A DNA stretch of 64,000 nucleotides, taken from NCBI GenBank assembly GCA_036379655.1, contig DASVGG010000130.1:6272-70271 (forward strand). Direction: 5' to 3'. This stretch comes from Pyrinomonadaceae bacterium. Lineage in GTDB: Bacteria > Acidobacteriota > Blastocatellia > Pyrinomonadales > Pyrinomonadaceae. Under the pieces are notes generated by a model that searched no databases, was not told where the DNA came from, and saw only the letters and a list, made by a program, of their open reading frames with translations. Both the position numbers and the translations under genes were made by a program. Within the stretch, counting starts at the first letter, position 1, and every line of letters starts with the position of its first letter. This document shows positions 5,449-45,602 of the stretch, piece after piece.

Positions 5449-6618
5449 GTGTCCACGTCCGCTTCGGTTTTCCGCCTCGCAAAGCGGCTTGAGGGTGTCG
5501 GCTTCTCCGACATCGTCAAAATCCGTAACAAGATTCTTGCGCTGCGCTCTGGCGGCGCGCAGGTCTTCCAGTTCGAGGGCGGCGAGCCCTTCCTCGAAAC
5601 ACCCGACCCCATCAAGGAGGCGATGACGCGCGCGCTGGCCGAGAACCGCACGCGCTACGCACCCTCCTCCGGCATTCCCGAACTGCGCGCGGCCATCGCA
5701 GAGAAGCTGCGCGAGCGCAACCGCATCCCCGCGCGTGAAGAGGATGTCATCGTCCTCAACGGCGGCATGCAAGGTCTCTTCGCGGCCTTCCAGTCGGTCG
5801 TGGACCCGGGCGACGAGGTGCTCGTCTTCTCTCCCTTCTGGACGCCCATCCGCGACCTCATCGCACACTGCGAGGGCAAGACCGTCCTCGTCCAAAGCCT
5901 TGAGGCGCGGCGCGAGGGCTTCTACGAGACGCTCGCGCGCCACGCCACCGAGCGGACGCGCGCCATCTACTACAACACGCCGCAGAACCCGACCGGCATC
6001 GTCTTCACGCGCGAGGAGGCGGAGGAGGTGGCGCGGTTCGCGCGCGAGCGTAACCTGGTCGTCATCGCCGACGAGGCTTACGAGGACCTCGTCTACGACG
6101 GCGAGCACGTCTCCATCGCCTCGCTCGAAGGGATGTTCGAGCGGACGATGACCTGCTACACGCTCTCGAAGTCGTACGCGATGACGGGGTGGCGCGTGGG
6201 CTACGCGGTGGCGGCCGAGCCGTGGATGACGGGGCTGAAGAAGTGCCTGCTCTACACGACGAACGGCGTCTCGACGCCGTCGCAGTACGCGGCGGTCGCG
6301 GCGTTCGGACTGCCCACGGAATTTTATGAAGGCATCCGTCGCGCGTACCGCGAGCGGCGCGACCTGCTCGTCTCGGGGCTGAACGAGTTGGGGCTTATCT
6401 GCGAACCGCCGACCGGCGCCTTCTACGCCTTCCCCGACGTATCGCGCGTACACCCCGACAGCCGCAACGCCGCCAACATCCTGCTCGAACGCGCGCAGGT
6501 GGCGACCGTGCCCGGCGTCGTCTTCGGCGAGCACGGCGAGGGCCATCTACGTTTCTCATTCTCGACTTCGCCCGACAACATCCGCGCCGGCCTCGACTCC
6601 CTCCGACAAAATCTCTGA
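5449..6618 (+). CDS. class I/II pyridoxal-phosphate aminotransferase (aspartate aminotransferase-like)
   Basis: PLP-lysine motif YTLSKSYAMTGWRVGY, plus NTPQNPTG and the RFSF tail. The GTG start at 5449 is preceded by a GAGGAG SD. The longer listed ORF (5149) has an implausible N-terminus. Confidence 0.85.
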   Translation: MSTSASVFRLAKRLEGVGFSDIVKIRNKILALRSGGAQVFQFEGGEPFLETPDPIKEAMTRALAENRTRYAPSSGIPELRAAIAEKLRERNRIPAREEDVIVLNGGMQGLFAAFQSVVDPGDEVLVFSPFWTPIRDLIAHCEGKTVLVQSLEARREGFYETLARHATERTRAIYYNTPQNPTGIVFTREEAEEVARFARERNLVVIADEAYEDLVYDGEHVSIASLEGMFERTMTCYTLSKSYAMTGWRVGYAVAAEPWMTGLKKCLLYTTNGVSTPSQYAAVAAFGLPTEFYEGIRRAYRERRDLLVSGLNELGLICEPPTGAFYAFPDVSRVHPDSRNAANILLERAQVATVPGVVFGEHGEGHLRFSFSTSPDNIRAGLDSLRQNL

Positions 6619-38779: not shown

Positions 38780-39967
38780 ATGAGCACCAATCTCATCGAC
38801 ACGGTTGGGGAGACGGCGGCGAGCGTGCTGGACGGGCTGGCGGAGGCCGTGCTGGGGCCGGCATCGACGCTGCGCGACGGGACGGAGCACGCGGGCGTCG
38901 AGTTGCCGCGCGACCTCTATGCGCACGCCGTCGCGCAGACAGAGTGGTGGTACTACACGGGCCACCTTCTGACCGACGCGGGGCGCAGGCTCGGCTTCGA
39001 GCTGGTCTTCTTCAAGCGGCGGACGGACCTCGACCGCTTCGGCGTGGTGCCGCTCCGTCTCATCGGCAACCCGCTCTACCTCGCGCACTTCGCCTTGACG
39101 GACGAGACGCGGCGGAGCTTCCGCTACGAGCACCGCAAGAGCGCCAACGGCCTCTTCGACCCGGCGGCGCGCGCCGACTCGCGCCGCTTCTATCTGCGCT
39201 TAGGCGACTGGACGGTGCGCGAGGCGCACGGCCTGCACCTTTTGCGCGCGACGCTCGACGGCGGCGACACCGTCTTCGAGGCCGCGCTCCGGCCCTCGAA
39301 GCCCGCCGCGCTCAACGGGCGCGAGGGCGCGGGCGTCAGTTTCAAAGACCACGGCGAGGCTTCGCGCTACTTCTCCTACACGCGCATGGAGGCGGAGGGC
39401 GACATCACGACGGGCGGCGTCACCGAACGCTTTCGCGGCGAGGCGTGGATGGACCGCGAGTTCGGGACGTGGGCGACGACGCAGGGGCAGAAGGGTTGGG
39501 ACTGGTTCAGCATCCAGTTCGAAGACCGCACAGAGCTGATGGTCTACCACATACGCGACGCGCAGGGCCGCCCCTCTGACTTCTCAAGCGGCACGTTCGT
39601 CGATGCCGACGGCCGTGGCACGCACCTCTCGCGCGCGGACTTCGAGCTTGAGCCGACCGACCACTGGAAGAGCCCGCACACGGGCGCAACCTACCCGAGC
39701 GGCTGGCGCCTGCGCGTGCCGCGCTTCGGGGTTGACGTGAACGTGACGCCGGTCATCAAGGACCAGGAGTTGGACACGCGCGGCACGACGATGATCGTCT
39801 ACTGGGAGGGCGCGTGCGCGGTTGAAGGTCGTCGGGACGAGGACGAGGTGAAGGGACGCGCCTACGTCGAGCTGGTCGGCTACGACCGCTCGCACGAGTC
39901 GCCCTCGCTCGTCACCTTCCTCTTCGGCTCCGCGCTCGACCGTGGCTGGCGCAGCATCTTCGGCTGA
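38780..39967 (+). CDS. carotenoid 1,2-hydratase (CrtC)/AttH-like lipocalin-fold protein
   Basis: EWWYYTGHL....G...GFELVFF...YLAHFALTD...G.AWMDREFG....QGQKGWDWFSIQ...YWEG...V.G. The true substrate is unknown. Confidence 0.65.
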   Translation: MSTNLIDTVGETAASVLDGLAEAVLGPASTLRDGTEHAGVELPRDLYAHAVAQTEWWYYTGHLLTDAGRRLGFELVFFKRRTDLDRFGVVPLRLIGNPLYLAHFALTDETRRSFRYEHRKSANGLFDPAARADSRRFYLRLGDWTVREAHGLHLLRATLDGGDTVFEAALRPSKPAALNGREGAGVSFKDHGEASRYFSYTRMEAEGDITTGGVTERFRGEAWMDREFGTWATTQGQKGWDWFSIQFEDRTELMVYHIRDAQGRPSDFSSGTFVDADGRGTHLSRADFELEPTDHWKSPHTGATYPSGWRLRVPRFGVDVNVTPVIKDQELDTRGTTMIVYWEGACAVEGRRDEDEVKGRAYVELVGYDRSHESPSLVTFLFGSALDRGWRSIFG

Positions 39968-40018
39968 GCCGCGCGGGGGCACTTGCTCCCGGGGACTTCC
40001 TATGTTCTTCTTATCAGC

Positions 40019-40351
40019 ATGTGGTTTTTAACTGTCAGGGCCGTACCGAAGCCCGAGTCACCGCTCGCGCTCGAAAGAGGCATTGCCTACGTGAGCTGCT
40101 GGGTTGATTTTCAGCTTCAGGACGGGGCTGAGTTGCTCGCGAGGCATTACATCGATCAGGCGGGGTGGTTCCCGGAAGAGGTCGAAGACGCGGTGTGGGT
40201 CGAGGGCGACGACTACGCCGAGGACAGGAAGAACGCGCTCTACTACTCCGAGGCCGAGAGTGAAGGGGCGAGCTTCGTCTTCCACGAGACCCGCGCGACC
40301 GGCCAGGGAGGAAAACAACCAACGAGCGGGACGCCGCTTGCCAACTTATGA
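40019..40351 (+). CDS. hypothetical acidic protein (110 aa)
   Basis: Coding-like third-position bias, and its stop overlaps the hemL ATG (ATGA at 40348-40351). I recognise no family, and the start is uncertain (ATG 40019 or TTG 39983). Confidence 0.45.
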
Positions 40352-41649
40352 GCGTCAGCGATAGTAACAGGCCGGGAAATTCCGAGAGGCTGTTCGCGCG
40401 CGCGGTCGAGTTGATGCCGGGCGGGGTCAACTCGCCGGTGCGCGCGTTCCGGGGCGTGGGCGGGACGCCGCGCTTCATCGCCTCCGCTTCCGGCGCGACG
40501 ATGACCGACGTGGACGGGCGGACGTACATCGACTACGTCGGCTCCTGGGGGCCGATGATTCTTGGCCACGCCGCGCCCGAAGTCATCGACGCGCTGCACG
40601 AGGCTCTGGGGCGCGGGACGAGCTACGGCGCGCCGACCGAGCTTGAGTGCGAGATGGCCGAAGAGATCATCGACGCCGTCCCTTCGGTCGAGATGGTGCG
40701 CATGGTCAACTCGGGGACGGAGGCGACGATGTCCGCGCTGCGCCTCGCGCGCGGCGCGACCGGCAGAAATAAGATCGTCAAGTTCGAGGGCTGCTACCAC
40801 GGCCACGGCGACAGCCTGTTGGTGAAGGCCGGCTCCGGCGTCGCGACGCTCGGCCTGCCCGACAGCCCCGGCGTCACCGCCTCGGTCGCGGCCAACACGC
40901 TCACCGTCGCTTACAACGACCCCGCGTCACTCGAAGCGGTCTTCAACGAACACGGCGAGGACATCGCCGCCGTCATCGTCGAGCCCGTCGTCGGCAACAT
41001 GGGCTGCGTGCCGCCGCGCGACGGTTACTTACAATCTCTGCGCGACATCACACGGAGGCACGGCGCGCTGCTCATCTTAGATGAAGTGATGACCGGCTTC
41101 CGCCTCGCGCGCGGAGGCGCGCAGGAGCTTTACAACGTTTCACCCGACCTCACCACGCTCGGCAAGATCATCGGCGGCGGCCTGCCCGTCGGGGCCTACG
41201 GCGGCCGTCGCGATTTGATGGAGCAGGTCGCGCCCGCCGGGCCGGTCTATCAGGCGGGCACGCTCTCCGGCAACCCTCTGGCGATGACGGCGGGCCTCGC
41301 CGTGTTGAGGCGTCTGCGCGACCGTTCCGTCTACGAGCGACTTGAAGAGGCGGGCCGACGCCTGACCGAGGCCGTATCCGAGGCCGCGCGCGAGGCGGGC
41401 GTCGAGACGGTGACGAACCGCGTCGGCTCGATGTTCACGACCTTCTTCAACGACGCGGAAGTCTACGACTGGGCGACGGCGGCGCGCTCCGACCGCGACC
41501 GCTACGGCCGCTTCTTCCACGCGATGCTCGCGGAGGGCGTCTACCTCGCGCCCTCGCAGTTCGAGGCCGCCTTCATCGGCACCGCGCACACCGACGACCT
41601 CCTCGACCGCACGGCCTCGGCCGCGCGCAAAGCCTTCCGCACGCTCTAA
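40348..41649 (+). CDS. hemL: glutamate-1-semialdehyde 2,1-aminomutase
   Basis: [10 protein letters not shown]....G.P.F......G....[18 protein letters not shown]...LDEVMTGFR...[15 protein letters not shown]. Confidence 0.95.
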
Positions 41650-41728
41650 CACACCGAGGCCGCCGCTCCTCTCACGTCGCGCGGCGGCCCGCAACTTCAC
41701 CCGCTCGCACACGGGAGTTCAACCAAAG

Positions 41729-43195
41729 ATGAGCGAGACCTTCGACTACGACGTTTTCATCAGCCACAGCTCTAAAGACAAAGCCGCCGTCCGCGACCTC
41801 GTCACCCGCCTCAAGGCCGACGGCCTCCGCGTCACCAGCGGCCTCAGGGTCAAGAATCGGCTCGAACGCTCGCGCACGCTCATACCCGTCATGTCCGCGA
41901 ACGTCTCCGACTCCGAATGGGCGATCTTCGAGAGCCAAGCCCTCTTCTTCAACGACCCCACCAATCAACAACGCCGCCTCATCCCCCTCCGCCTCGACGA
42001 CACCGAACCTCAACTCACCCTCAAACAATTCGCCTACGTAGACTGGCGCCACAAATCCCCCGACCAATACGCCGCCCTCCTCTCCTCCTGCCGCCCACCA
42101 GCAGCAACGATGGAATCCTCCGCAGAACATAAGGACGAACTACAGCCTAGCAGAATCCTCAATGGGCACTCAGGAGCAGTCTTCAACGTGGCAGTAACCC
42201 CGGACGGACGGCTGGCCGTCTCCGGCTCCTCTGACACGACAGTGCGGGTGTGGGACGTGGAGGCGGGCAGGTGCATCGCCAAGCTCGAAGGGCACAGTAA
42301 TAAGGTGCTCGGAGTGGCGATGACGGCGGATGGCCGACTGGCCGTCTCGGGCTCCTACGACGGTACGGTGCGGGTGTGGGAGCTACCATCGATGGAAGGG
42401 AAATCCGTTGAAGGGGCAGAGGTAACGCGCTACACCAATGCCAAGGTTCTGCTTGTGGGGGACAGTGGCGTGGGGAAGTCGGGGTTGGCGGTGCGGTTGA
42501 CGGAGGATAAGTTTGAGGCGACGGTTTCGACGGATGCGGTGTGGGCGACGCAGTTGAAGTTGCCGGGTGAGGTGAGCACGGAGGAGATTGAGCGGGAGAT
42601 TTGGTTGTGGGATTTTGCGGGGCAGGCGGATTATCGGTTGATTCATCAGTTGTTCATGGACGAGACGGCGTTGGCGGTGTTGGTGTTCAATCCGCGGAGC
42701 GAGAACCCGTTCGAGGGGTTGGGGCAGTGGGATAGGGATTTGCAGAGGGCGGCGCGGCGGAGGTTCAGGAAGTTGTTGGTGGCGGGGCGTTGTGACCGTG
42801 GGGGGTTGATGGTGAGTGGGGGGAGCGTGGAGCAGTTCATCAGGGAGCGCGGGTTCGACGAGTATTTGGAGACGAGCGCGTATGCGGGGACGGGGTGTGC
42901 GGAGTTGCGCGAGGCAATCGTTACTAACATTCCGTGGGATGAGATTCCGTGGACTTCGTCGCCGCGCATCTTCAAGCTTTTGAAGGAAGAGATTATCAGG
43001 CTGAAGGACGAGGGAAAAGTGCTGCTGCGGATGGGGGAGTTGAAGCAGCAGTTGGAGATGCGTCTGCCGGGCGAGGCGTTCACGTTGGAGCATTGGACTG
43101 TTAGCGGGGCCGGGCGTGGTGTGGCAGTTGGAGTTCGGCGACTTCGTGCTGCTCATTCCGGAGCGCGTCAACGCGTACGCGGCGGCCGTGATTAG
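41729..43195 (+). CDS. TIR / 2x WD40 / Roc-type small GTPase / start of COR: the N-terminal fragment of a frameshifted ROCO-like gene
   Basis: TIR motifs: DVFISHSSKDK, SDSEWAIFESQ, LIPLRLDD, FAYVDWR. WD40: GHSGAV...SGSSDTTVRVWD and GHSNKV...SGSYDGTVRVWE. GTPase: G1 GDSGVGKSG, G3 WDFAGQ, G4 GRCD, G5 ETSA. After about residue 455 the as-read frame becomes Gly/Arg junk up to the stop at 43195. Confidence 0.75.
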   Translation: MSETFDYDVFISHSSKDKAAVRDLVTRLKADGLRVTSGLRVKNRLERSRTLIPVMSANVSDSEWAIFESQALFFNDPTNQQRRLIPLRLDDTEPQLTLKQFAYVDWRHKSPDQYAALLSSCRPPAATMESSAEHKDELQPSRILNGHSGAVFNVAVTPDGRLAVSGSSDTTVRVWDVEAGRCIAKLEGHSNKVLGVAMTADGRLAVSGSYDGTVRVWELPSMEGKSVEGAEVTRYTNAKVLLVGDSGVGKSGLAVRLTEDKFEATVSTDAVWATQLKLPGEVSTEEIEREIWLWDFAGQADYRLIHQLFMDETALAVLVFNPRSENPFEGLGQWDRDLQRAARRRFRKLLVAGRCDRGGLMVSGGSVEQFIRERGFDEYLETSAYAGTGCAELREAIVTNIPWDEIPWTSSPRIFKLLKEEIIRLKDEGKVLLRMGELKQQLEMRLPGEAFTLEHWTVSGAGRGVAVGVRRLRAAHSGARQRVRGGRD

Positions 43196-44381
43196 GAAGG
43201 TGCGCGCGCACACGGAGGAGATCGGCGTCATCGTTGAGGAGGACGTGCTCGCGGGCAAGCTCGACTATCAGGACATGAGGCGTCTGCCGGAGGATGAAGA
43301 ACAGATCGTCCTGCGCGCGATGCACCAGACGTTCGTGGACCACGGCCTCTGCCTGCGCGAGCCGACCGAGGCCGGGACGCTGCTCGTCTTCCCTTCCTAC
43401 TTCAAACGCGAGCGGCCGGAACTCGAAGGTCACCCGGCGGTCTTCGTCACATACCTTTTCAACGGTCAGCTCGACGAGGTCTACTCGACGCTGGTCGTGC
43501 GGCTGCATCACACGTCCGCCTTCGAGAAGGACCAGCTCTGGCGCTTCGCCGCCGACTTCAAGACGCAGGCGGGCCTGCGCGTCGGGCTCAAGATGACGAA
43601 GCAGCAGGAGGGGTCGGCCGAGATCGCCGTCTACTTCGAGCCGGGCGTGACGGACGAGACGAAGGTCATGTTTATCAAGTACGTCCACGAGCATCTCAAG
43701 CTGAAGGCGCAGGACGTGGTGCGGCTCAGGCATTACGTCTGCCCGCACTGCGGGACGCCCGTGGAGAACCGCAAGACGGCTTTGGACAGACTCGAACGCG
43801 GGCTCAAGGACATCGTTTGCGTGAACTGCGAGAAGCGAATCCCGCTGTGGGACTTGATAGAGCAGAAGTTCGCCTCCGAAGAGTTCCAGCGGCGCGTGCG
43901 CGAGATGGAGGAGCAGGCGCGCGCGAGCATCGACAACGAGAGCCGCGAGTTGATCCTGGTCGGCCACGCCTTCGCCATCGCGGGCGAGGCCGGGCAGATT
44001 TTTCGGCCGACGGCCAACTCCGATTGGGGCATCGACGGCGAGATTGAGTTCAAGAACAACCGTGGCGAGGCGAGCGGCCGGCGCGTCTACCTACAGCTCA
44101 AGTCGGGCGACTCTTACCTACAGAAGCGGAAGGCCGACGGCAAGGAGGTCTTCCAGATCAAGCACGCGCGCCACGCGGACTACTGGCGGGAGCAAGCCTA
44201 CCCTGTGATGCTGGTCGTCCGCACCTCGGACGGCATGATTCGTTGGATGAACGTGACCGACTATCTCAAACAGCATGGGGCGAAGACGCGGCAGGTCGTC
44301 TTCGACGGCGAGCCCTTCACGGCGCTGAGCGTGGCGAGGCTGCGGGACAGGATGTTCCCGGAACTGATGGGTCTGGCGTAA
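43116..44381 (+). CDS. COR-like domain / 4-Cys zinc ribbon / DUF4365-type PD-(D/E)xK nuclease: the C-terminal fragment of the same gene
   Basis: COR-like: VWQLEFGDFVLLIPERVNAYAAAVIRK, LVFPSYFKRERPE, FVTYLFNGQLDEVYSTLVVRLHH. Ribbon: CPHCG...CVNCE. Nuclease: ESRELILVGHAF...SDWGIDGEIEF...RVYLQLKSG. This frame is open upstream to 43044 and has no SD, so the listed GTG 43116 start is probably artificial. Confidence 0.75.
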   Translation: MVWQLEFGDFVLLIPERVNAYAAAVIRKVRAHTEEIGVIVEEDVLAGKLDYQDMRRLPEDEEQIVLRAMHQTFVDHGLCLREPTEAGTLLVFPSYFKRERPELEGHPAVFVTYLFNGQLDEVYSTLVVRLHHTSAFEKDQLWRFAADFKTQAGLRVGLKMTKQQEGSAEIAVYFEPGVTDETKVMFIKYVHEHLKLKAQDVVRLRHYVCPHCGTPVENRKTALDRLERGLKDIVCVNCEKRIPLWDLIEQKFASEEFQRRVREMEEQARASIDNESRELILVGHAFAIAGEAGQIFRPTANSDWGIDGEIEFKNNRGEASGRRVYLQLKSGDSYLQKRKADGKEVFQIKHARHADYWREQAYPVMLVVRTSDGMIRWMNVTDYLKQHGAKTRQVVFDGEPFTALSVARLRDRMFPELMGLA

Positions 44382-44384
44382 CTC

Positions 44385-45308
44385 GTGGTCAACGTCCCGC
44401 AAGCGTTCGCGCGTACGATTGTTGCGCTCCACGGCGAGGCCGGGCGGCTGTGGCTGGAAGGGCTGCCGTCGCTCGTTGAAGAGTGCGCCGGGCGTTGGGC
44501 TCTGAAGGTCGGGCCGCACTTCCCTTCACTCTCATACAACTACGCCGCGCCGGCCGAAGGCCAAGGTGGCGAGCGGTTCGTCCTGAAGCTGGGCGTGCCC
44601 GCGCAAGGTCTGCGCAACGAAATCGAGGCGTTGCTCGCATTCGATGGTCGCGGCGCCGCGCGGCTCGTCGATTCGGACGCCGCGCTCGGCGCACTGTTGT
44701 TGGAGAGGCTTGAGCCCGGGACGCAGCTCGTCGCCCTCTGCGAGGATGACGACGGCGCGGCGACCGACGCCGCCGCGTCCGTCATGCGGAGCTTACGACG
44801 CACCACGTTGCGCGAGCCGCACTCGTTCCCCACGGCCGCCGACTGGGGACGCGGCTTCGAGAAGTGTCGCGCGCTCTTCGGCGGCGGCACCGGGCCTTTC
44901 CCTCGGAGACTGTTCGAAGAGGCCGAGTCTCTTTACGCCGAACTCCTCGACACTTCGGCCCCGCGCACGCTCCTCCACGGCGACCTGCATCACGGCAACA
45001 TCCTCGCCGCCGGACGCGAGCCCTGGCTCGCCATCGACCCGCAGGGCGTCGTCGCCGAACCGGCCTACGAGGTCGGCGCGCTCCTGCGCAATCCGCTCCC
45101 GCAACTCCTGCGCTGGCCCGACCCCGTGCGCGTGACCGAGAGACGCATCGCACAACTCTCCGACGAACTCGGCTTCGAACGCGCGCGCGTTCGCGGCTGG
45201 GGACTCGCGCAGGCCGTGCTCTCCGAGTGGTGGACGATTGAAGACGGGGGCGAGTTGGGCGAGACGAGTCTCGCGGCAGCGAAGATCATAGCTGCGACTA
45301 AACTCTGA
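44385..45308 (+). CDS. aminoglycoside/streptomycin 6-phosphotransferase-family kinase (APH(6)-like)
   Basis: LLHGDLHHGNIL (Brenner motif), AIDPQGVVAEPAYEVG, and the RRIAQLSDELG tail, which resembles StrB/APH(6)-Id as I recall it. GTG start 3 nt after the upstream stop. Confidence 0.75.
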   Translation: MVNVPQAFARTIVALHGEAGRLWLEGLPSLVEECAGRWALKVGPHFPSLSYNYAAPAEGQGGERFVLKLGVPAQGLRNEIEALLAFDGRGAARLVDSDAALGALLLERLEPGTQLVALCEDDDGAATDAAASVMRSLRRTTLREPHSFPTAADWGRGFEKCRALFGGGTGPFPRRLFEEAESLYAELLDTSAPRTLLHGDLHHGNILAAGREPWLAIDPQGVVAEPAYEVGALLRNPLPQLLRWPDPVRVTERRIAQLSDELGFERARVRGWGLAQAVLSEWWTIEDGGELGETSLAAAKIIAATKL

Positions 45309-45312
45309 AATA

Positions 45313-45527
45313 ATACCGACTAGCGAATCAACATAAGGCCGCGCACCGCCGGGAGCGCGGGCATCCCTGCCCGCCATGAGCGCGTCAGCGCGAATAGAGT
45401 GAGACTTTACACCTCAACGTTGAGGGATAGAGTTTCTCTGTTAAGCGTGCTGGCGCACGTTTTGGCGGGCAGGGATGCCCGCGCTCCCGGCGCGGAGTTC
45501 GCCTTATTTCAGCTCGCAAGTCGGTAT
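45313..45527. repeat. 215-bp MITE-like element / long imperfect palindrome
   Basis: Outer inverted repeat: ATACCGACTAGCGA (45313-45326) with TCGCAAGTCGGTAT (45514-45527), 13/14. Perfect 29-bp inverted repeat: CGCCGGGAGCGCGGGCATCCCTGCCCGCC (45347-45375) with 45464-45492. Central palindrome CCTCAACGTTGAGG. No ORF is credible. Confidence 0.85.
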
Positions 45528-45530
45528 AAC

Positions 45531-45594
45531 CACAGAGACACGGAGGCACGGCTTGAAGATGATAGACCTCAAGCTGTGCCTCCGTGTCCCTGTG
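45531..45594. repeat. 26-bp stem-loop (CACAGAGACACGGAGGCAC type)
   Basis: 45531-45556 pairs with 45569-45594 (24/26) around a 12-nt loop. It lies immediately downstream of the histidine-kinase stop on the minus strand. Confidence 0.9.
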
Positions 45595-45602
45595 ATTAAA
45601 GT

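Follow-up and report, generated by a model that had tools for sequence, protein, structure and literature searches.

The question raised by this locus is whether a Pyrinomonadaceae bacterium carries a single-gene immune protein built around a Roc-COR GTPase, and whether that gene still works. The locus occupies positions 41,729 to 44,381 of a stretch of 64,000 nucleotides (nt) of contig DASVGG010000130.1 (GenBank assembly GCA_036379655.1, contig positions 6,272 to 70,271, forward strand), referred to below as the window, and consists of two overlapping open reading frames (ORFs) in different frames. The answer given here is that the gene at this locus decayed recently and is most likely a pseudogene; its intact counterparts encode a single-gene NLR-like protein of the Roco type and would act in immunity by the mechanism proposed below. 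We favour this reading while keeping considerable doubt about it.

The ORF list and the alignment with homologues demonstrate that the two ORFs are halves of one disrupted gene. The original prediction, made from the DNA letters, read them in this way and gave the order TIR, two WD40 repeats, Roc (Ras-of-complex) GTPase, COR, four-cysteine ribbon and DUF4365 nuclease; this anatomy is confirmed, including the coordinates and all the motifs quoted for it (Table 1), apart from COR, which is supported by predicted fold. Profile hidden Markov model searches uphold four of the assignments: TIR_2 (Pfam, ORF1 residues 9-117, 4.7e-16), the two WD40 repeats in ORF1 (Pfam, 1.3e-22), Roc (ORF1 residues 239-401; Pfam Ras 1.8e-21, Roc 6.3e-18) and DUF4365 (ORF2 residues 288-412, Pfam 2.3e-21). 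The ORF1 N-terminus also matches ThsB-type TIRs weakly in PADLOC, and its putative catalytic Glu, located in SEWAIFE (41912-41932), is kept and is conserved in at least 90% of the family. Ras/Roc is the only NTPase type detected in the gene; Pfam, PADLOC and NCBIfam reveal no STAND P-loop ATPase switch (NACHT, NB-ARC or AAA-type). The ribbon has a weak Pfam match (E about 0.02), but its four Cys are invariant across 76 homologues. DUF4365 is additionally matched by the PADLOC model Aga_REase (Argonaute-associated restriction endonuclease, REase; 7.9e-15), and in the alignment with PDB 9qbq the family LQLK pairs with VQVK of 9qbq/9qbp. In the SPARDA nuclease TmuRE, Q62 and K64 form the essential active site, and mutation of QxK inactivates the enzyme (PMC10810196). 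The window copy retains both the Asp and the QxK motif of this domain.

The COR assignment fared differently in the same searches, as it has no match at the level of sequence: when the family alignment was used to build a HMMER profile for the COR-like region, no meaningful match was found in PDB or Pfam. Fold evidence comes from an AlphaFold2 model of the homologue P0067 (75% identical; predicted local distance difference test score, pLDDT, 82.5). In a Foldseek search its top matches were the Roc-COR tandem of Chlorobaculum tepidum Roco (3dpu_A, E 5.5e-19, 500 aligned columns), 6hlu, LRRK1 and LRRK2. These Roc-COR matches span E-values from 5.5e-19 to 1e-14, and plain small GTPases rank well behind them. 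The predicted fold thus suggests that a COR domain follows Roc in the family.

The window copy carries three lesions, which were called against five intact syntenic orthologues in protein and DNA alignments; the closest homologues are 85-88% identical in amino acids over the shared region. The TIR domain has lost WLDEWEIRPGD, the last part of strand B together with the BB loop, through an in-frame deletion of 33 nt at 41832/41833; the orthologues keep these residues. TIR NADases need an intact BB loop for self-association and activity. The WD40 array has two blades vs four (P0001), six (P0005) and seven (P0002) in close orthologues, and the number rises to 14 in more distant relatives (P0045 of Acaryochloris marina). 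Finally, a 14-nt deletion at 43092/43093 (GAGCA/TTGG) causes a frameshift and breaks the Roc-COR connection, ORF1 being out of frame from 43093 to its stop; at this site the orthologues carry GTTGCGNGCNGTNG, encoding QLRAV near the start of COR. With these lesions the window copy cannot make the full-length protein, and an active protein at this locus is not supported. Since the BB loop is missing, the propeller is not closed and Roc-COR is interrupted, the copy should be inactive; it is probably dead and most likely a pseudogene. The loss of blades is the lesion most likely to be an assembly artefact (repeat collapse). The 14-nt and 33-nt deletions sit in unique sequence, and sequencing errors are unlikely there.

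The repeats themselves point to the kind of sensor that the intact protein would have. In the orthologous contig L002 the blades form a 126-nt tandem array of 5.5 copies with 92% self-identity; Tandem Repeats Finder detects no tandem array in the window copy. Blade number ranges from 2 to 14 across the family. The entropy of 460 blades peaks at unit positions 4, 5, 7, 23 and 25, and the same positions vary within single proteins, e.g. P0005; we take them to lie in the D-A and B-C loops on the top face of the WD40 propeller. By analogy, such near-identical and hypervariable blades appear to mark sensor propellers that have been amplified recently and are diversifying. The same repeat signature is found in the highly internally conserved (HIC) arrays of the cyanobacterial WRAP (Npun_R6612; PMC9218822) and of the fungal NWD/HET-E receptors (PMC12222747).

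The family to which the gene belongs is large. The first homology search returned thousands of matches, the best of about 1,100 amino acids (7 blades) or about 1,400 amino acids (14 blades), and a search with ORF2 alone matches 2,797 representatives when clustered at 50%, with E<=1e-30 for 511. Intact relatives of about 1,000-1,100 or about 1,400 amino acids have the order TIR, WD40 propeller, Roc, COR, zinc ribbon and DUF4365. A phyletic scan with one genome per species located the COR/ribbon/nuclease module in Acidobacteriota, Armatimonadota, Planctomycetota, Cyanobacteria (Nostoc, Acaryochloris), Chloroflexota, Nitrospirota, Firmicutes, Heliomicrobium, Actinobacteria, Verrucomicrobiota and Methanothrix. 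The distribution is patchy over more than 10 phyla, and amino acid identity across phyla is often 75-79%, which implies horizontal spread of the family. The core is under purifying selection, the ratio of nonsynonymous to synonymous substitution rates (dN/dS) being 0.06-0.14 in Roc and 0.06-0.10 in COR.

Several members depart from this plan. In an Armatimonadetes chromosome (OY970325.1, locus L059, 8090-11435) the gene is split into an 828-residue ORF and a 285-residue ORF with the COR end, ribbon and DUF4365, and DUF4365-like fragments adjoin the family copies in L082 and L083. Disruption of family members seems to be recurrent, or else long-read frameshift errors are involved. P0129 and P0137 carry ATPase modules of the AbiEii/OLD type (AAA_23/AAA_15/AAA_21) after the Roc/COR/DUF4365 core, and P0171 has a response-regulator receiver domain N-terminal of the core. 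A distant relative, WP_157817021.1 (1731 amino acids; L086, 2267-7462), is encoded on the Nostoc flagelliforme plasmid pNFSY08 beside an IS630 transposase; it runs from WD40, Roc and a COR-like region to a NACHT domain and so pairs the Roc-COR cassette with a STAND ATPase.

Judged from its domain content, a repeat sensor joined to a Roc-COR switch and to TIR and DUF4365 effectors has the grammar of NLR-like conflict proteins, in agreement with the design logic recognised in the original prediction. The following mechanism is proposed for intact members. The hypervariable top face of the propeller would bind an invader-derived ligand, and binding would shift the nucleotide and dimerisation cycle of Roc-COR, as in C. 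tepidum Roco (CtRoco) and LRRK2, where nucleotide state is coupled to COR-mediated dimerisation (PMC5714945, PMC11052575). The changed oligomeric state could then gather the TIR (NADase) and DUF4365 (collateral DNase) domains into active centres, with abortive infection as the outcome. Both TIR NADases and the SPARDA DUF4365 nuclease are activated by oligomerisation (PMC12205087), and the role of DUF4365 as a collateral DNase effector has been validated in SPARDA (PMC10810196, PMC12205087).

Table 1. Positions of the disrupted gene, its domains and motifs, the adjoining genes and the skewed block (window coordinates).
Feature	Position	Strand	Support or remark
hemL (Aminotran_3), conserved upstream neighbour	40348..41649	+	
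Block of extreme strand asymmetry	41700..43300	.	GC skew
ORF1, 5' half of the disrupted gene, with the TIR (shortened by deletion), two WD40 blades, Roc and the initial ~45 residues of COR	41729..43195	+	488 amino acids
TIR domain (TIR_2)	41750..42079	+	Pfam, protein and DNA alignments, model secondary structure
Remnant WD40 array, 2 blades (GHSGAVF..., GHSNKVL...)	42164..42394	+	Pfam, homologue alignment
Roc (Ras-of-complex) GTPase	42428..42931	+	Pfam Ras/Roc; NCBIfam small_GTP
Roc motif G1, GDSGVGKS	42458-42481	+	
Roc motif G3, WDFAGQ	42608-42625	+	
Roc motif, G4-like, GRCD	42785-42796	+	
Roc motif G5, ETSA	42869-42880	+	
COR-like region, N-terminal part, ORF1 frame	42953..43092	+	ends at 14-nt deletion junction
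COR-like region, rest, ORF2 frame (FPSYFKRERPE 43389-43421, VVRLHH 43494-43511)	43093..43739	+	predicted fold of homologue
ORF2, 3' half of the disrupted gene	43116..44381	+	421 amino acids; GTG start
Four-Cys zinc ribbon (CPHC ... CVNC)	43740..43829	+	invariant Cys, weak Pfam zinc-ribbon matches
DUF4365 (DREN-type PD-(D/E)xK nuclease)	43977..44351	+	Pfam, PADLOC, PDB 9qbq/9qbp
DUF4365 motif, DWGIDGEIEFK	44022-44054	+	
DUF4365 motif, QxK in YLQLKSG	44088-44108	+	
APH_6_hur-like kinase gene (aminoglycoside/hydroxyurea kinase family), downstream neighbour	44385..45308	+	

The gene had been said to behave like an accessory islet, and its surroundings speak otherwise. The contigs of the closest homologues (L001, L002 and L003) have a common gene order of hemL, the TIR-WD40-Roc gene, an APH_6_hur-like gene (not in L002), a HisKA kinase, polA and lpxC, and in L005 and L008 the gene has the same position relative to hemL, the histidine kinase and polA. 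All five are Pyrinomonadaceae-type genomes. Nucleotide identity of these syntenic contigs to the window is 79-90% and is equal in the gene and in its flanks. Shared synteny and equal divergence mean that the gene is an old vertical resident and not a fresh islet, and recent horizontal acquisition was rejected on these grounds: a Pyrinomonadaceae-like clade of acidobacteria has passed the gene down vertically at a fixed place on the chromosome. Near the gene there is no tRNA, no Rfam family and no hallmark of integration, scans for Rfam families, tRNAs, promoters and terminators being uninformative, and neither the protein nor its neighbours match APAZ or Argonaute.

The immediate neighbourhood also differs in detail from the first description, in which the gene lay between hemL and a histidine kinase and was followed by an element resembling a miniature inverted-repeat transposable element (MITE). 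The APH_6_hur-like gene intervenes, beginning 3 nt past the stop of the disrupted gene and ahead of the histidine kinase; it is present in L001, L003, L005 and L008 and not in L002, and is thus a variable element of the neighbourhood. It is this gene that the palindrome follows. The palindromic insertion (about 235 nt, 45303-45537) has perfect 30-nt arms (45347-45376 and 45463-45492) and imperfect outer arms, and a second hairpin with 30-nt arms occupies 45527-45598; both are located where the APH-like gene and the histidine kinase gene converge, in a gap that by gene coordinates is only about 52 nt long in the orthologue L001. The palindrome, at most a candidate MITE, has no further copies within the 64-kb window. 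Two other small differences were seen: a 395-residue ORF with a short ORF (38780-40351) between an NFACT-like gene and hemL is present in L005 and L008 and not in L002, and the polA orthologue of L002 (15333-19328) encodes 1331 residues (912 in the window) with a weak LAGLIDADG_3 match inside DNA_pol_A, which suggests an intein-like insertion.

Several points weigh against the reading of a decayed immune gene, and the first of them concern the decay. Private changes at columns of at least 97% conservation number two in the window copy vs 0-3 in intact relatives, and dN/dS of pairs with the window copy is 0.17-0.20 vs 0.16-0.21 in intact pairs. As both are normal, there is no trace of pseudogenisation beyond the three deletions, and the damage is either recent or partly an assembly artefact. 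Taken further, the gene could be intact in the organism and make a working full-length protein, with the frameshift and the blade loss, if not all three lesions, being assembly or consensus artefacts of a metagenome-type assembly. A substitution pattern that cannot be told apart from that of intact orthologues fits this explanation, and so do the tendency of 126-nt tandem repeats with 74-92% identity to collapse in short-read assemblies and the presence of only two blades in the metagenomic homologues P0065, P0067 and P0084. We nevertheless regard it as unlikely, because the 14-nt and 33-nt deletions in non-repetitive sequence are unlike 1-2-nt homopolymer errors and because all three lesions are confined to one gene, the flanking genes aligning cleanly. 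A split gene working as two polypeptides (TIR-WD40-Roc and COR-ribbon-DUF4365, reassembling or separate) is less probable still. The possible GTG start of ORF2 at 43116 would allow it, and the relative L059 is also split, but at a different site; the break, however, is a 14-nt deletion within the conserved N-terminal segment of COR rather than a domain boundary equipped with start signals, damage to the TIR domain and to the propeller arose independently, and all five syntenic orthologues have a single ORF.

The remaining adverse points concern function. The G4 motif of Roc is GRCD instead of NKxD (the Asp is kept and NK is lost), and the predicted fold is the single line of evidence for COR. 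The literature search found no experimental test of a Roc-COR (Roc/Roco) defence protein, as the original prediction had supposed. IMG/VR yielded no relatives that would indicate phage carriage, and the plasmid-borne relatives are only distant ones. In the window clade the gene is stable among housekeeping genes (six genomes), and P0007 is likewise located among metabolic genes. Orthologues set among housekeeping genes away from defence islands had been named beforehand as a sign against an immune role; the window clade displays exactly this, and the family as a whole contradicts it only weakly. At 25 non-syntenic loci about 6-7 of the 172 neighbouring ORFs match independent PADLOC defence models (OLD/Gabija-like ATPase, mad2/3, SduA, pVip, PDC-M68A), a count taken without background control, and the Acaryochloris copy adjoins an AAA_35 and WD40 pair and a DUF559 endonuclease. 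Neighbour matches to the Aga_REase and TIR models were set aside as fragments of the same or a paralogous gene and not independent systems. The association of the family with known defence genes is at most weak. It may be asked whether the family represents chromosomal signalling or regulatory Roco GTPases in which TIR and DUF4365 are interaction or regulatory modules. A housekeeping-gene position stable over a synonymous divergence (dS) of about 0.3-0.5 in six genomes, strong purifying selection on Roc-COR, few known defence neighbours and viral contigs without relatives would all suit such a role, and the characterised Roco proteins LRRK2 and CtRoco are signalling proteins (PMC6337361). Against it stand the conservation of both effector catalytic signatures (the TIR Glu and the DUF4365 QxK), the near-identical, hypervariable blades of variable copy number, a cross-phylum distribution that resembles horizontal transfer, the recurrence of disrupted copies and the fusion of relatives to AbiEii/OLD-type ATPases and NACHT. 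In view of these features a purely signalling role seems improbable to us, and the reading of the locus as a decayed copy of an immune gene is retained.

One further property of the gene calls for an explanation. The atypical codon usage noted originally does reflect a real composition anomaly; as a sign of an islet it fails, since it is common to all the syntenic orthologues and inherited. GC skew is -0.3 to -0.37 until about 42200 and then +0.35 to +0.52, with the change of sign within the WD40 array, and is the most extreme in the 64-kb window (mean -0.01, standard deviation 0.10). The top strand is rich in C and A along the TIR half and in G and T along the Roc half. Third codon positions are 67% C, 12% G and 16% A in the TIR segment and 66% G, 14% C and 16% T in the Roc segment, and the part from COR to the end is balanced. 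L001, L002, L003, L005 and L008 show the same mosaic in spite of a dS of about 0.3-0.6, and most other lineages lack it; its persistence over such divergence implies that it is maintained and not merely inherited. The polarity resembles the signature of a replication origin or of divergent transcription centred on the WD40 array. A G-quadruplex was rejected as the cause of the G-rich Roc block, because a single motif (42715-42737) is present, L003 and L008 do not preserve it, and such motifs number 7 over the 64 kb of the window. Resection starting at a double-strand break within the repeats was also rejected, because it predicts the opposite polarity. The switch might be the footprint of a recurrent localised DNA-level process in the WD40 array, e.g. 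outward repair synthesis or divergent transcription tied to blade turnover, although we give this idea very little credence. If it were true, a Roco-type immune sensor would carry its own means of diversification.

The architecture is less new than was implied at first. Counter-invader systems of prokaryotes in which AP-GTPase(Roc) and COR are combined with effectors such as TIR and REase were described, as a computational prediction, by Kaur et al. 2021 (eLife, PMC8195603), whose source data list TIR+BetaPropeller+AP-GTPase and LRR+AP-GTPase+COR+REase7 proteins (LRR, leucine-rich repeat), and AP-GTPases are mentioned in conflict systems by Kaur et al. 2020. These systems share with the present family the combination of a repeat sensor, Roc, COR and variable effectors in one polypeptide, which the window copy has only as a disrupted gene. 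They are typically LRR-Roc-COR-effector proteins with a single C-terminal effector, whereas here a WD40 propeller replaces the LRR and an effector is found at each end; the COR/Zn-ribbon/DUF4365 tail is not annotated in that listing. The term AP-GTPase itself was reportedly used earlier by Koonin and Aravind. The window gene is accordingly a new, broken member of a computationally predicted kind, and what is recognised beyond the published listing is the COR/ribbon/DUF4365 tail and the dual-effector arrangement.

Other known systems resemble parts of it. C. tepidum Roco (3DPU, 6HLU), LRRK1 and LRRK2 have the Roc-COR fold with repeats N-terminal of Roc and output C-terminal of COR; in contrast to them, the present protein has 14-17% sequence identity, no Pfam COR match and GRCD as G4, its output is a nuclease and not a kinase, an extra TIR domain is added at the N-terminus, and WD40 takes the place of LRR. 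SPARDA (a short pAgo with DUF4365/DREN-APAZ) has a DUF4365 domain with the QxK active-site motif, but here there is neither APAZ nor an Argonaute partner, and the input would be a GTPase switch with a protein sensor instead of guide-directed nucleic-acid recognition. The STAND/NLR-like antiphage proteins (Avs, bNACHT, Apaf-1-like WD40 STANDs) likewise combine an effector, an NTPase switch and a repeat sensor, use TIR and nuclease effectors, and include defence STANDs with WD40 sensors (PMC13581612); the switch here is instead a Ras-like GTPase with COR, and the sensor is N-terminal of it. WRAP (Npun_R6612) and the NWD/HET-E arrays have near-identical 42-residue blades with few variable loop positions, variable blade number and frequent disruption, but they are joined to STAND ATPases and not to Roc-COR.

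The window locus adds only a broken copy to this family, together with the evidence that genes of this kind can, at least in one clade, be long-term chromosomal residents and not island passengers. The family is large and its core is strongly conserved, which makes it a reasonable experimental target. Human LRRK2 and DAPK1 use Roc-COR as their switch. If a prokaryotic Roc-COR protein were shown to sense invaders and to fire TIR and nuclease effectors, this would point to an immune origin for Roco GTPases, parallel to that of NLR/STAND proteins, and would provide a simple model of how the nucleotide state of Roc-COR controls an output domain.

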